Of a stretch of DNA of 40,618 nucleotides, positions 24,775 through 36,288 are shown piece after piece (the first letter of the stretch is position 1; every line of letters begins with the position of its first letter). The translations under genes were made by a program, and so were the position numbers. A model generated the notes under the pieces. The model was not told the DNA's origin. It made no database searches and worked only from the letters and a program-made list of their open reading frames with translations. The stretch lies in the IMG/VR virus record IMGVR_UViG_2718218168_000006; one strand, given 5' to 3'. This DNA is from a virus. Lineage: Duplodnaviria; Heunggongvirae; Uroviricota; Caudoviricetes.

Positions 24775-24934
24775 AGCCTCACCTCCGCAAATAACGGATG
24801 GCGTAGTTTTACACTGAGAAATGAAAGGGATTTGAAAAGAAAAAACCGCAAAAGCGGGCGAAACGATATATACAGAAAGGAAAGCACTCTATCCAACAAA
24901 CCACCCACAGTTGATCGGAATAAAAGCAGAGTGC

Positions 24935-25007
24935 TTATGAATGATCGCCTGCCCGAAGGTTAGTATTTCTGCACAGCAATTTTGCAAAAAAAGGCGATCA
25001 TTCATAA
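24935..25007. repeat. 16-bp perfect inverted repeat (TTATGAATGATCGCCT / AGGCGATCATTCATAA) separated by about 41 bp
   Basis: Read directly from the sequence between tRNA-Gly and the S gene. Confidence 0.6.
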
Positions 25008-25066
25008 CTTAAACGTCTTTCAGTCACTCCGGGATTTCCCATCATCGCAGACTGAAAGACTCTGAC

Positions 25067-25141
<75 letters not shown>

Positions 25142-25144
25142 ATA

Positions 25145-25220
<76 letters not shown>

Positions 25221-25222
25221 AC

Positions 25223-25299
25223 TGGACCGCCACCGGGGACTCGAACCTCGCACACTCAACTTAAAGGGTTGACGCTCTTTCCTGATGAGCTAGTGGCGG
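25223..25299 (-). tRNA. atypical tRNA (anticodon loop CCTTTAA, apparent anticodon UUU; C at position 33)
   Basis: 7-bp acceptor stem CCGCCAC/GTGGCGG, T-loop TTCGAGT, encoded CCA; C33 and one T-stem mismatch make identity uncertain. Confidence 0.4.
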
Positions 25300-25300
25300 T

Positions 25301-25376
25301 TGGTGGCCCTTGCTGGATTTGAACCAGCGACCTGGCGATTATGAGTCGCTCGCTCTCACCACTGAGCTAAAGGGCC
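25301..25376 (-). tRNA. tRNA-Ile2/Met (anticodon CAU), ileX/ileZ-like
   Basis: GGCCCTTTAGCTCAGTGGTGAGAGC..CTCATAA..GGTTCAAATCC..AAGGGCC-A-CCA; resembles E. coli ileX. Confidence 0.7.
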
Positions 25377-25493
25377 GGGCGCAGGATAATAACGTTACGA
25401 AATCAATGTTGCAAGCATTCAAAAATCACCTGGTTAAAAATCACCCTTATCTCCTCCACCAGCGCATTCACCATGTCTATCCGAGATAAGTGG

Positions 25494-25521
25494 CACAAAA
25501 AAACCCGCTTGATGCGGGTTT
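25494..25521 (-). terminator. intrinsic terminator upstream of the tRNA cluster (tR-prime-like)
   Basis: aaacccgc-ttgat-gcgggttt hairpin followed on the minus strand by about 7 T. Confidence 0.55.
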
Positions 25522-25641
25522 AAGTTGTGTGGCGAAGCGACCACTCTTAACAGATTAAGATAGTTTTTGCGTACGCGTTAGTGATTTTTTCATAATTATC
25601 TGTATCCTGTGGCTATTTCTCTTGCGCAAAGGATGCTTTTG

Positions 25642-26520
25642 ATGACGCAGCAACTCGAAAACATGCCAATAACAGAAATCGAAATTGCCTACGGTGGAGA
25701 GGCATACGCAGATAATCAGATCGACGCGAAAACATTAGGCGAAGCCTTAACCTCTCTTAGTGCCCTGATTGAACACGCCGAAAAAATAATTAATGGCGAA
25801 ACAGCAGAGCCGAAAGTCAACATCAAGGCAACAAAAGAAGGTTCATTTACTTTGCTTGTTGCTGTGATGGGGAGCATAAAAACTATTAACGCCCTTGGCC
25901 TCGTTGCAGGTGGTGGAGTTGCCGCAGGTGGCGTACTCGGGATAATCGAATGGCTCAAAGGGCGTAAAATCAGCTCCATTGTCGTCGATGAACAAAAAGA
26001 TACAGCAGAAATCGAAGTGGATGGTGAGAAGGTTAAATGCAGTAACGACATTCAAAAATTAATAACCAGTCCAATCATCCGAAAAGAACTGGATAAATTA
26101 ATCTATAAACCCCTGCAGACTGAAAAACCATCCACGTTCTCAGTTTCACAGCAGAAGCATAAGGTAGTCAGGGTGACGCAAGCTGAAGCAGTAAGTTTTA
26201 AAACTGCAAAATCCACCTTTGTCGAGAAAACGCACGTAACGACACGCCAAGCTAATGTACATTTTGCTAATGTTCGATTCAAGCAAGGCAAAAGCTGGGA
26301 TATCATCCTGCCAAATGGCGAAGAAGTTAGCGCATCTATGAAAGATGAGGCTTTTCTTGAACGGGTTGAACACAACCAAGCAGCATTCTGTAAGGGTGAT
26401 CTTTTTGTTGTAGAACTGACAGAAACAACAAAAGAAACAAATGGCGCGCTGTCTAAACCACGCTATAGTATTACTAAGGTTATACGCCACAGAGCGGCGG
26501 CAGATAGGAAACTACTTTAA
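25642..26520 (+). CDS. hypothetical protein with central Gly-rich hydrophobic segment (first gene of 3-gene cargo operon)
   Basis: Track ORF 25609..26520; probable ATG at about 25642 (MTQQLENMP..) after AAGGA; contains FTLLVAVMGSIKTINALGLVAGGGVAAGGVLGIIEWL; AT-rich relative to flanking phage genes. Confidence 0.6.
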   Translation: MTQQLENMPITEIEIAYGGEAYADNQIDAKTLGEALTSLSALIEHAEKIINGETAEPKVNIKATKEGSFTLLVAVMGSIKTINALGLVAGGGVAAGGVLGIIEWLKGRKISSIVVDEQKDTAEIEVDGEKVKCSNDIQKLITSPIIRKELDKLIYKPLQTEKPSTFSVSQQKHKVVRVTQAEAVSFKTAKSTFVEKTHVTTRQANVHFANVRFKQGKSWDIILPNGEEVSASMKDEAFLERVEHNQAAFCKGDLFVVELTETTKETNGALSKPRYSITKVIRHRAAADRKLL

Positions 26521-26523
26521 ATC

Positions 26524-26769
26524 ATGTCAATCCTAAGCATTATGCTTTACATCACTGTATTCATGGCTGTCGCAGCGACGGTCAGATATGCTGTGCTTAG
26601 GTTCTTGGTTTGGGTAAAGCCGAATGCGTATATTGAACTAACCTACACCGATCCTGAAGGCAGAACCGCTAAAAGGAAAGTCAGCGTTAGAAACGAAAAT
26701 GACGCAGAAGAGTTGGCGCTACTGCTACGCGAACTCAAAACTCGCAACGAAGCAAGTGCAGGAAGGTGA
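26524..26769 (+). CDS. small membrane protein (1 predicted TM), second gene of cargo operon
   Basis: 81 aa ORF MSILSIMLYITVFMAVAATVRYAVLRFLVW..; starts 3 nt after the upstream stop. Confidence 0.55.
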   Translation: MSILSIMLYITVFMAVAATVRYAVLRFLVWVKPNAYIELTYTDPEGRTAKRKVSVRNENDAEELALLLRELKTRNEASAGR

Positions 26770-27156
26770 ATGGCGAACACTAAATCCTACCTGGCAATGC
26801 AGGCATGGTTTACCACCCTTATCACTGCGGGATTGAATTTCCTTTTTGACTGGCTTCCTCAATTAGCCTTCTTCAAATCATTGGCGCCTGGAGCTGCTGT
26901 CGGCTTATCTCATGTGGTAATTCTTCTTATCGCTTACATAGGTTTGCCTACGCTTAATGATGTAAGAATGAAAAGGGAAATAAAAACGGCCAGAAAATTC
27001 ATCACGAACTGCCTGGCCAACCCTAACCTAACACCAGACCAAATTGCGCACTACAACCAATGTCTTATCGATCTAGACAATAAGCTATTAAAAAACATAA
27101 ATATTCGTATTGATGCTTTATCTGACGCCGAATCGAAAGCTCAAGCAAACGAGTAG
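26770..27156 (+). CDS. small membrane protein (2 predicted TM) with helical C-terminal tail, third gene of cargo operon
   Basis: 128 aa ORF; ATG immediately follows the upstream TGA; convergent with and ending about 13 nt from the Q stop. Confidence 0.55.
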   Translation: MANTKSYLAMQAWFTTLITAGLNFLFDWLPQLAFFKSLAPGAAVGLSHVVILLIAYIGLPTLNDVRMKREIKTARKFITNCLANPNLTPDQIAHYNQCLIDLDNKLLKNINIRIDALSDAESKAQANE

Positions 27157-27169
27157 TAACAGTCATAAC

Positions 27170-27519
27170 TTATGATAGAATCAAGCATATACATCCATCA
27201 ATAAAGCCTAATGCAGTTTGCAGCTCCTTTCTTATAGTTCCATCTGAGCACCTGCGTTTCTTCGCGATTGAGCGTAGAGAAACACCAATAACAAAGTGAG
27301 CTATGAGCAGCTCATATTCCTCTGGTTTATACTTTCGCAACCGAGCCACACAACCGTCTATCATGATGCCTTCATCATCATCACACTGGAGACGTGACTT
27401 TTTGCCATGTGGCAAAAGCCCCTTGAAGCCCGCTGCTATCGGTTGCCAATCGACACCGCTATTTTCTGCTGCAGCCCATGCCCCCAGCGATCTAAAACCT
27501 CATACATATCACGCCCCAT
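27170..27519 (-). pseudogene. Q: late-gene antiterminator Q (QuuD-like), interrupted by a frameshift
   Basis: N-terminal frame MGRDMYEVLDRWG.. (ATG overlapping rusA stop) stops after 27 codons; C-terminal track ORF 27170..27415 is open upstream as ..AWAAAENSGVDWQPIAAGFKGLLP..; fusion at a C-run near 27481-27485 restores the QuuD-like RWGAWAA motif. Confidence 0.75.
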
Positions 27520-29985: not shown

Positions 29986-30141
29986 TTACTCCTCAGGTTC
30001 GTAAGCTGTGAAGACAGCGACCTCCGTCTGGCCGGTTCGGATTCGTACCTCGCAGAGGTCTTTCCTCGTTACCAGTGCCGTCACAATGACGGTAATACAG
30101 ATGACGATCAGGGCGACTAACATCGCCTTTTGCTGCTTCAT
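29986..30141 (-). CDS. hok: Hok/Gef family type I toxin
   Basis: 51 aa MKQQKAMLVALIVICITVIVTALVTRKDLCEVRIRTGQTEVAVFTAYEPEE, near-identical to HokD/RelF as I recall it; AAGGAG RBS. Confidence 0.85.
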   Translation of the reverse strand: MKQQKAMLVALIVICITVIVTALVTRKDLCEVRIRTGQTEVAVFTAYEPEE

Positions 30142-30352
30142 AGCCTGCTTCTCCTTGCCTTTCGGCACGTAAGAGGCTAACCTAGATTTGCCGTTCATAG
30201 ATTGAGCCTCAGATTAATGTTAAGCGTCTTGCCGGACGCGTAATGTTAACTGGGGCTTTTCTCTATCTGCCTTTTGGTGTTCATGCCTGAGACAGATAGC
30301 CTCAAGCACCCGCTGCAATTCTACTTAACTCTCCTTTTCCCGCAAACCGTTT

Positions 30353-34168: not shown

Positions 34169-34259
34169 AAGTCGCTCCATAAAACTGAACGCCAAAAGTT
34201 TAATAATCAAAACCAAAGAAAGTCAAGAAACAAAACCATCTGTGTTTTAAAATCAAAAC
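34169..34259. promoter_or_regulatory. divergent promoter/operator region between cro-like and cI-like genes
   Basis: Repeated GTTTTG/CAAAAC half-sites including near-palindrome TGTTTTAAAATCAAAACA abutting the cI ATG, and GTTTAATAATCAAAAC; candidate -35 TTGACT on the minus strand. Confidence 0.45.
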
Positions 34260-34898
34260 ATGAGCAAGCAAACAATATCTGAACGCATAACCCAACGTAT
34301 GCATGCGCTAAACCTGAAAGGCAAAGACCTTGTCAATGCCACTGGCGCATCAAAAGGCTCCGTAAGTCAATGGATGAACGGTGGAGGAGCGCCGTCCTCG
34401 CGTTACATAAGTTCACTGGCAAAGATATTGAAAGTAAACGAAAATTGGCTTCTTAATGGAGGAGAGTTAAATACAGGTGATTCGCTTGATCTATCTTTAC
34501 CGCCGATAAAAACGGTTCCGCTACTATCACTTCAGCAGGCAGCAAGCTGGAGTGATTATATGAAAAATTCCTCAATAACCTCTTGTGTGCAGCTTGTCGG
34601 AGAAATCCCGGCCAATACCTTTGCAGTTGTTCTAGAGAGTGACAGTATGTCAACATCTGGTGGGGGAGTTTCCATCCCAAATGGTTCAACAGTTTTTGTT
34701 GATCCCGATCGAACCGTACAACCAGGAAATATTGTCCTTGCCTTACCCAAAGGGACCACAACACCTGTCATTCGTAAACTGGAGATAGAAGGGCCGGATA
34801 TTCTTTTAGTCCCCACGAATCCTCGCTATCCTTCAATTATGCTGGATGATCTATCTTGCATATTGGGCGTATGCTTTAAAATTCAACAAGATATTTAA
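34260..34898 (+). CDS. cI: CI-like repressor (N-terminal HTH, C-terminal S24 LexA-type peptidase domain)
   Basis: 212 aa ORF; HTH region and Ser-Lys dyad context (ESDSM..K); no SD upstream of ATG. Confidence 0.85.
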   Translation: MSKQTISERITQRMHALNLKGKDLVNATGASKGSVSQWMNGGGAPSSRYISSLAKILKVNENWLLNGGELNTGDSLDLSLPPIKTVPLLSLQQAASWSDYMKNSSITSCVQLVGEIPANTFAVVLESDSMSTSGGGVSIPNGSTVFVDPDRTVQPGNIVLALPKGTTTPVIRKLEIEGPDILLVPTNPRYPSIMLDDLSCILGVCFKIQQDI

Positions 34899-35724: not shown

Positions 35725-36288
35725 TAGCTAACCAACGAAGCTAAGGTTGGTAATTAAGGAGTTCTCCACGGGTGAGGTGGAGTGCGTGTGCCGGACATGG
35801 GTGAGCATCCGGCACTGACAGTTTACTGAAAGGATATGTCCCTGAAAAGTCAGGGCATAACGCGAAAGCGCACGGCGAAATTGGTCTCTCTGTACGGTGT
35901 CGTTAAATTTAGTTCGACCGTGCGCTTCCGGTTGTGGCACTCCGCGAAATGGCGCGGAGGTAAGTATGGCGGGGTTATTCCTTCCCCGTTGAGGACACCG
36001 GGTTGTCAGGTTGACCATACGCTTAAGTGACAACCCCGCTGCAACGCCCTCTGTTATCAATTTTCTGGTGACGTTTGGCGGTATCAGTTTTACTCCGTGA
36101 CTGCTCTGCCGCCCTTTTTAAAGTGAATTTTGTGATGCGGTGAATGCGGCTAAGCGCACGCGGAACAGTTAAAACCAAAAACAGTGTTATGGGTGGATTC
36201 TCTGTATCCGGCGTTAATTGTTAACTGGTTAACGTCACCTGGAGGCACCAGGCACCGCATCACAAAACTCATTGTTGAGGGCGCGATA

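Follow-up and report, generated by a model that had tools for sequence, protein, structure and literature searches.

The window, a 40,618-nucleotide stretch of Caudoviricetes DNA (IMG/VR record IMGVR_UViG_2718218168_000006), carries on its minus strand a cluster of four tRNA genes, a gap of 292 bp and the gene of the holin S, which is followed by a DUF1327 protein and then by a lysozyme (Table 1). The CAU tRNA (25301-25376, minus) was assigned to Met by ARAGORN, and its equivalent in EAEC 042 and FDAARGOS_1267 is tRNA-Ile according to PGAP. If it is indeed an Ile tRNA that reads AUA, all four tRNAs decode A-ending codons (AUA, AAA, ACA and GGA); the CCA end is encoded by none of them. A promoter-like sequence matching at 10 of 12 positions (TCGGCA-16-TATAAT; 25126-25153, minus) extends from the end of tRNA-Thr into the start of tRNA-Gly and recurs in phage 606R7; it is probably a by-product of tRNA sequence. 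Elsewhere in the window, Rfam matches comprise IS009 (41-239, minus), the sok antitoxin RNA (30136-30311, minus) and DicF (36063-36114, plus), all of them typical lambdoid/Qin-like prophage RNAs.

The arrangement upstream of the tRNAs was compared with that of phage 606R7, in which a promoter-like site at the Q stop is followed, in this order, by a terminator, the site TTGCAA-17-TATTAT, the tRNAs, the element described below, a further terminator and S. The window has retained everything from the first terminator onward; its Q-proximal part consists of three ORFs on the opposite strand (303, 81 and 128 aa; region 25609-27156, plus), which have no Pfam match and converge with the Q ORF. This Q ORF (27170-27415, minus) encodes 81 aa matching positions 36-112 of the 118-position PF06530 profile and looks N-terminally truncated, and the window prophage may have lost Q-dependent late transcription. 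The position of the three ORFs is equivalent to that of stxAB in phi467 (L003, 1098-2333), a near-identical Stx2f phage in which the toxin genes lie between the Q region and the tRNAs and in which the tRNA-to-S gap likewise measures 292 bp. Classical Stx1/Stx2 phages carry stx between the tRNAs and S, and a preceding sequence-only reading had described the gap as an otherwise empty stx-equivalent slot; because stx lies upstream of the tRNAs in phi467 and the gap is filled by the element, the gap is neither empty nor the stx slot of this lineage. The terminator-like hairpin that precedes S is one G shorter in the window than in most relatives (GCGG versus GCGGG), has about four G-C pairs and falls below the scan threshold; a stronger version was scored in 606R7 (GCCCGCTTTTGCGGGT followed by TTTTCTTTTC), and the lengths of both the G-run and the T-run differ among near-identical copies.

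Table 1. Features of the window between the tR'-like hairpin and holin S, in the direction of late transcription.
Feature	Coordinates	Strand	Basis and remarks
Upstream terminator-like hairpin (tR'-like)	25501..25521	-	Terminator scan; preceded by a Q-proximal promoter-like site in 606R7
Promoter-like site TTGCAA-17-TATTAT	25386..25414	-	Consensus match only; ends ~10 nt before first tRNA
tRNA cluster: CAU, Lys(UUU), Thr(UGU), Gly(UCC)	25067..25376	-	ARAGORN and Rfam
HP1, 11-bp stem	25015..25060 (25060-25050 / 25025-25015)	-	Fold and covariation
HP2 (the inverted repeat)	24935..25007; outer stem 25007-24992 / 24950-24935	-	Fold and covariation
P2a, 8-bp hairpin inside HP2	24990-24983 / 24973-24966	-	100% paired in alignment
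P2a loop, 9 nt, near-invariant AAAUUGCUG	24982-24974	-	
HP2 interior: linker UACUAA, then mini-hairpin CC-UUCG-GG	24959-24952 (mini-hairpin)	-	
HP3, 8-bp variable outer stem and invariant apex CCGAUCAAC-UGUGGGU-GGUUUGUUGG	24884..24934	-	Fold and covariation
Terminator-like hairpin GCCCGC-UUUU-GCGG with UUUUUU	24840..24859	-	Sequence and fold
Holin S, P21 holin family, 71 aa	24559..24774	-	PF04971, E = 1.4e-35; first late gene downstream of the element

A repeat search of the window identified two 16-nt arms in the gap, 24935-24950 (TTATGAATGATCGCCT) and 24992-25007 (AGGCGATCATTCATAA), that are complementary at 16 of 16 nucleotides and separated by 41 nt; no longer perfect inverted repeat with a loop of up to 100 nt exists in the 40.6-kb window. 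When the gap was shuffled 1,000 times with dinucleotide frequencies preserved, the longest perfect repeat was mostly 6-8 bp (mode 7), a length of 14 bp was the maximum and arose once, and 16 bp was never reached. The sequence-only reading had reported a perfect 16-bp inverted repeat with arms about 41 bp apart, placed it between the tRNA cluster and S, and thought a chance origin unlikely. The measurements agree on each point, the repeat lying in the 292-bp gap between tRNA-Gly (25067-25141, minus) and the P21-type holin, with the late genes on the minus strand, and the 16-bp repeat is a real, non-random feature. The perfect 16-bp run occurs in only 3 of 32 distinct HP2 sequences and is thus a trait of a sub-lineage; in the family consensus, the same outer stem comprises 14 bp with wobble or mismatch.

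The complete gap, taken as minus-strand RNA, folds into three hairpins in a row (-96 kcal/mol, z = -5.3; 0 of 200 shuffles), with a weaker fold on the plus strand (z = -3.6). The repeat is the main, outer stem of HP2, the middle hairpin of an element of ~190 nt with the order HP1-HP2-HP3, which in the window starts 6 nt past tRNA-Gly and in which HP3 adjoins HP2 with zero spacer. HP1 has an internal loop that is conserved (UGCGAUGAU ... GGAGU) and, at its apex, a GGG/CCC mini-stem, and HP3 of the window folds more stably on the late strand (-20.3 kcal/mol, z = -3.7) than on the opposite strand (-12.6 kcal/mol, z = -2.1). The covariance model built for the element (R1) scored 145.5 bits over 24876-25011 of the window.

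Base-pair conservation was evaluated in an alignment of 24 representatives with less than 95% identity to one another (A2). In the RNAalifold consensus of this alignment, the outer stem of HP2 comprised 14 bp and surrounded an 8-bp hairpin (loop AAAUUGCUG) as well as a CC/GG mini-hairpin; HP3 had an outer stem of 8 bp and a 5+4-bp apex. On the late strand, 96.9% of 980 cells were paired across the 24 representatives, and two-sided changes were found at 10 pairs in 50 cells, with five such pairs in the outer stem of HP2 and four in that of HP3; none of 500 shuffles matched the observed pairing or covariation score, and controls with slid partners brought the pairing down to 32-49%. HP1, which was tested separately on 22 sequences, gave a similar picture (96.4% of cells paired, two-sided changes at four pairs, 0 of 500 shuffles). 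Phage HK639 keeps the 16-bp stem through the exchanges A-U to U-A, U-A to G-C, C-G to U-A and U-A to G-C together with one G-U pair, and its loops are almost unchanged. Throughout the alignment the loops were more conserved than the stems, the 41 nt between the arms of HP2 being the most conserved part. Most of the compensatory changes split the two main lineages and the number of independent events is modest; some are added by A-U/G-U/G-C intermediates and by further lineages (L151, L059/L075).

The identical pairs read on the opposite strand were paired in 85.5% of cells, compared with 96.9% on the late strand, and G-U cells outnumbered A-C cells by 122 to 10 in the same alignment; because of these two asymmetries, the pairing works single-stranded on the late-gene strand only. 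The structure thus acts in single-stranded form, as the late-gene strand. Taken together, the locus holds three hairpins with covarying stems, conserved loops, strand-specific pairing and a fixed position and orientation, and we are highly confident that they constitute a conserved single-stranded structured element, most likely RNA.

The gap was found at 98% identity in four E. coli phages (606R7, phi467, 689R5 and PhiR47_1), and a 165-nt part of it is shared by HK639, with an identity of only 75%. Of 5,426 complete E. coli genomes, 535 (~10%) carry the element, in all cases on the chromosome and in none annotated, with a median of one copy per carrier genome and always in the same context; the carriers include EAEC 042, UPEC strains and the Stx2f phage phi467. 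Two exact-motif scans of IMG/VR each returned at least 120 contigs, and in more than 100 copies from viromes and prophages every stem is maintained through compensatory and G-U changes around near-invariant loops; the covariance model detected exactly one copy per contig or phage. A scan of species-representative genomes extended the range to Escherichia, Shigella, two Enterobacter species, Citrobacter, Yokenella and Phytobacter, that is, to six genera of Enterobacteriaceae; three further matches outside this family were judged to be due to chance. The covariance model had no match in the DLP12 / IpeX region of K-12. EAEC 042 (L173, NZ_CP042934.2 1634247-1641275) carries the full element (144 bits) together with Q (PF03589) and three tRNAs in a decayed prophage with a truncated holin that is joined to fragments of tail genes; the module of tRNAs and element survives.

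The genomic context is equally constant. The element always lies between Q and the lysis genes and is co-oriented with the tRNAs and the late genes in every case; upstream stand Q proteins of the families PF06323, PF03589 or PF06530, or morons, and downstream stand four holin families (PF04971, PF16080, PF05106 and PF16931) and endolysins of three Pfam families. Same-strand tRNAs precede it in 53 of 63 distinct contexts, in 41 of which tRNA-Gly(UCC) is the direct neighbour or is separated only by HP1. A terminator-like hairpin with a T-tail follows 18-48 nt past HP3 in 52 of 68 distinct copies. No conserved promoter was found directly in front of the element; the TTGCAA-17-TATTAT site before the first tRNA is kept in 606R7 and FDAARGOS_1267 and was not found in HK639 or L040, which makes it specific to the sub-lineage of the window. 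There it would turn tRNAs, element and terminator into a self-contained unit. With no promoter detected before the tRNAs in HK639 and L040 and no conserved one before the element, the RNA would in general be made only within the late transcript. STnc100 and sok also occur near the element in related loci, and in L142 an STnc100-like RNA lies between two tRNAs. Terminator-like hairpins are in excess in the late leaders of HK639 (L001 3300-4140; 5 versus 1.2 expected) and L142 (6000-6820; 6 versus 1.7 expected), which, with the STnc100-like RNA of L142, suggests small-RNA units in tandem, each bounded by a terminator.

The three hairpins behave as modules. HP1 is optional, being present in 44 of 63 distinct contexts, and in copies that lack it the stem of HP2 begins 0-2 nt past the tRNA 3' end. 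HP2 is 73-78 nt long in 32 of 32 distinct versions, none of which has an insertion between the arms; it occurs alone after a tRNA in L103 and L142, the latter having the layout of an sRNA gene (tRNA, HP2, A/U-rich linker, terminator). L151 has kept the HP2 stem around an interior that differs; L146 carries an internal deletion. The HP3 apex (CCRAY-UAACC-NNGGGU-GGUU-U-GUUGG) also stands alone in further late leaders, where it is borne by two other outer stems; these HP3-only copies have no adjacent terminator, two of the loci (L134 and L137) lie downstream of Q-like proteins recognized by similarity to the confirmed Q of L025, and no HP3-only version was found among sequenced phages. In the virome contig L136 (78-2227), HP2 is missing and HP3 is the only remnant; directly upstream are an ORF for a group II intron-type reverse transcriptase and an IS3-like transposase fragment, both identified by reading of the sequence.

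Furthermore, the HP3 apex recurs within a different hairpin on ~138 mostly conjugative plasmids of E. coli and Salmonella, located ~55 nt downstream of a type IA topoisomerase gene (L172 1478-1552; pEC4115, NC_011351.1 19055-19145). This plasmid hairpin is unannotated, is co-oriented with its flanking genes and had no match in Rfam. Across prophage late leaders and conjugative plasmids, the apex thus uses four different outer stems; a search for host mimicry with it returned nothing but the element, the plasmid hairpin and a 19-nt match in hemY that is due to chance. Stems that vary around invariant apexes are the pattern that scaffolds displaying recognition surfaces would be expected to leave.

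What the element does can be proposed from its surroundings, and our best guess, to which we give a little less than an even chance, is that a stable trans-acting RNA is released from the transcript of the tRNA cluster. The element forms the 3' end of the tRNA cluster of lambdoid prophages, within the late-operon leader on the minus strand. Its transcription together with the tRNAs would start at the Q-dependent late promoter and, in the sub-lineage of the window, also at the promoter-like site next to the first tRNA. Host tRNA-processing nucleases could then excise the tRNAs and thereby free an RNA that extends from the tRNA-Gly trailer to the terminator-like hairpin past HP3, analogous to a 3' external-transcribed-spacer RNA, only larger and more structured. 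The variable stems, including the 16-bp repeat, may serve as rigid scaffolds that display the invariant loops (the internal loop of HP1, AAAUUGCUG of HP2 and UAACC-NNGGGU-GGUUUGUUGG of HP3) to a trans partner, which could be a protein or a second RNA. All steps beyond folding and conservation are ones that we infer from sequence. Counted in favour of the trans model were the co-oriented tRNAs (53/63), the terminator (52/68), the layout of L142, the promoter-like site and the retention of the module in EAEC 042; counted against it were the HP3-only copies without a terminator, the weakened terminator of the window and the outcome of a target search, in which prophage-internal sequences complementary to the conserved loops did not exceed chance. 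A broader version, which we consider rather improbable, is that the element represents a new, modular ribonucleoprotein-type RNA class of enterobacterial mobile elements whose invariant apexes, that of HP3 in particular, dock a host or phage protein. Such an RNA might be a decoy for tRNA-targeting defence nucleases, encoded beside the replacement tRNAs of the phage, or might modify the transcription complex independently of Q. Phage tRNA clusters are now being connected with escape from defences that target tRNAs.

The same RNA could instead act in cis, as the 5'-terminal structure of the lysis/morphogenesis mRNA once the tRNAs have been removed, where it might protect the message from 5'-end-dependent decay or Rho loading, take part in processing, or change the elongating polymerase as a put-like element or insulator at terminators. 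We regard this as the less likely course, yet a serious one, for the element always sits at one place and in one orientation, past Q/pR' and before the lysis genes, whatever the Q or holin family, the HP3-only copies likewise sit in late leaders without a terminator of their own, the HP2 stem of HP1-less copies starts just past the tRNA as a 5'-terminal protective stem would, and terminator-like hairpins are in excess in the HK639 and L142 leaders. However, near-invariant loops are not needed in simple stabilizer hairpins, a put-like antiterminator behind a constitutive tRNA promoter would carry transcription into the lysis genes of a lysogen, and the presence of Q makes an RNA antiterminator unnecessary; moreover, model R1 has no match to the annotated putL-like RNA of HK639 (34187-34312, NC_016158), the two sequences being visibly unrelated, and the module has been kept in EAEC 042 despite the destruction of the late genes downstream. 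The suggestion of the sequence-only reading that the repeat is a regulatory RNA structure in the late transcript holds as far as the RNA structure is concerned, by virtue of the compensatory and G-U changes and the late-strand bias, and regulation in cis stays as a candidate.

Readings at the level of DNA fare worse. A hairpin signal in single-stranded DNA, of the priming or ssDNA-promoter type, would suit the HP3 apex on plasmids that are mostly conjugative and become single-stranded at one stage; single-stranded DNA, too, tolerates G-T wobbles, so that the strand asymmetry alone is no proof of RNA. Lambdoid prophages, however, have no obligatory ssDNA stage at this locus, and co-orientation with the tRNAs and late genes in every case, as of the plasmid copy with its flanking genes, also speaks against this reading. 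A palindromic protein site in double-stranded DNA, such as the sequence-only reading had entertained, predicts conserved arms and A-C cells as frequent as G-T cells, whereas the arms were found to vary and yet stay complementary, with the excess of G-U over A-C on one strand only; for a palindromic operator, conservation would be symmetric on both strands, in contrast to the 96.9% and 85.5% observed. We consider a DNA site of either type quite improbable. Still further down stands a scar of mobile DNA, whether the terminal inverted repeats of a miniature transposon or the footprint of excised cargo that had also been suggested. Although a perfect 16-bp TIR-like pair spanning 73 bp in a moron-accepting region (PMC4104026) invites such a reading, the element has a median of one copy per genome, is never dispersed and always lies in the late leader, its arms covary rather than keep a transposase-binding sequence, and its flanks (AAG ... 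GCA) show no direct repeat or target-site duplication. No part is conserved better than the interior, and HP2 stays at 73-78 nt in every version; in the relatives, where cargo between the arms had been proposed as the point to inspect, cargo adjoins the element and is never inside, which leaves the scar scarcely credible. We likewise attach next to no weight to a small protein gene, annotated in 606R7 as a 38-aa 'hypothetical protein' from an ATG in the 5' arm: this ATG opens a 38-codon frame through HP2-HP3 in the sub-lineage of the window, but in 68 distinct copies the length of the frame lies anywhere between 3 and 68 aa, with 25 copies at 10 aa and 24 at 38 aa, and an internal T-run of 5-8 nt shifts it between close relatives.

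The interest of the element lies in its breadth, its strong structure and the reuse of its modules across phages and plasmids. Lambdoid late leaders are a nursery of host-rewiring small RNAs (AgvB, AsxR, StxS and Pas), to which it adds a structured, tRNA-coupled family, and the covarying scaffold stems with their invariant loops point to a specific molecular partner. With three modules and natural HP2-only and HP3-only variants, ready-made deletion controls are at hand. For annotation, the element accounts for a spurious 'hypothetical protein' call and for a seemingly 'empty' intergenic gap.

Comparison with known RNA families was carried out at several levels. Rfam 15 gave no family at the gathering score for 24775-25066 and only noise of 11-13 bits at E<=10, and nothing overlapped the element in 12 related loci; the covariance models of AgvB (RF02702), AsxR (RF02703), STnc100 (RF02076) and Esr41 (RF02676) had no match at the element. 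For the Pas sRNAs of E2348/69, a family defined by blastn (bioRxiv 10.64898/2026.05.13.724894), four regions were compared with coordinates from the supplement of PMC8550237; blastn with word sizes 7 and 11 yielded only chance 10-14-mers, and model R1 had no match. In literature text, strings of the element sequence returned only an unrelated primer. A riboswitch-like antiterminator/terminator was rejected, as complementarity to the terminator is not conserved between window-type and HK639-type copies, as was a kissing interaction between GGGU of the HP3 loop and ACCU of HP2, in which changes of ACCU (L075, L104 and L020) are uncompensated. A self-cleaving ribozyme behind the tRNA, of hammerhead or HDV-like theta type, was set aside as well, there being no such Rfam match even at E<=10 and no constant tRNA junction.

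The position of the element recalls two kinds of tRNA-linked RNA. The tRNA cluster of phage T4 contains the stable RNAs C and D. Like these, which are matured with the tRNAs, the element is a non-tRNA structured RNA in or ending a phage tRNA cluster; T4 belongs to a different phage group, and the likeness is one of description. The 3'ETS-leuZ of glyW-cysT-leuZ, reportedly described by Lalaouna et al. in 2015, is the 3' external-transcribed-spacer RNA of a tRNA operon. As with 3'ETS-leuZ, the element directly follows the last tRNA of its cluster and is co-oriented with it; the terminator-like hairpin seen past HP3 in most copies may correspond to the intrinsic terminator of the unit. Unlike 3'ETS-leuZ, the element is phage-borne, about three times longer and built of three covarying hairpins with invariant loops. 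3'ETS-leuZ is a short single-stranded sponge site, whereas RNase E release, Hfq binding and sponge activity of the element are putative.

Among prophage RNAs, the element shares with the late-leader sRNAs AgvB and AsxR (Tree et al. 2014, PMC4104026), StxS, PasA/C/D (PMC8550237; bioRxiv 10.64898/2026.05.13.724894) and STnc100 a location in the moron- and sRNA-rich stretch between Q/pR' and the holin, the site downstream of pR' being a moron site (Tree et al. 2014, PMC4104026). AgvB and AsxR are 51-60 nt long, have their own promoters and are convergent, whereas the element is ~190 nt long, co-oriented and tRNA-linked. The put antiterminator RNAs of HK022/HK639 (PMC9378689) resemble it as cis-encoded phage RNAs with adjoining stem-loops upstream of terminators, and HP2 and HP3 abut as the two put stems do. 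Put RNA renders RNA polymerase resistant to terminators by way of the beta' zinc-binding domain. Put RNAs, however, are ~70 nt long (126 nt as annotated in HK639) and lie downstream of early promoters (PMC9378689), whereas the element is unrelated in sequence, has a Q gene present and lies downstream of it, in the late leader, in every annotated case; HK639 has both a putL-like RNA and the element. As an RNA family the element is new and unannotated, although its general kind, the non-coding RNA of prophage late leaders or tRNA trailers, is known.
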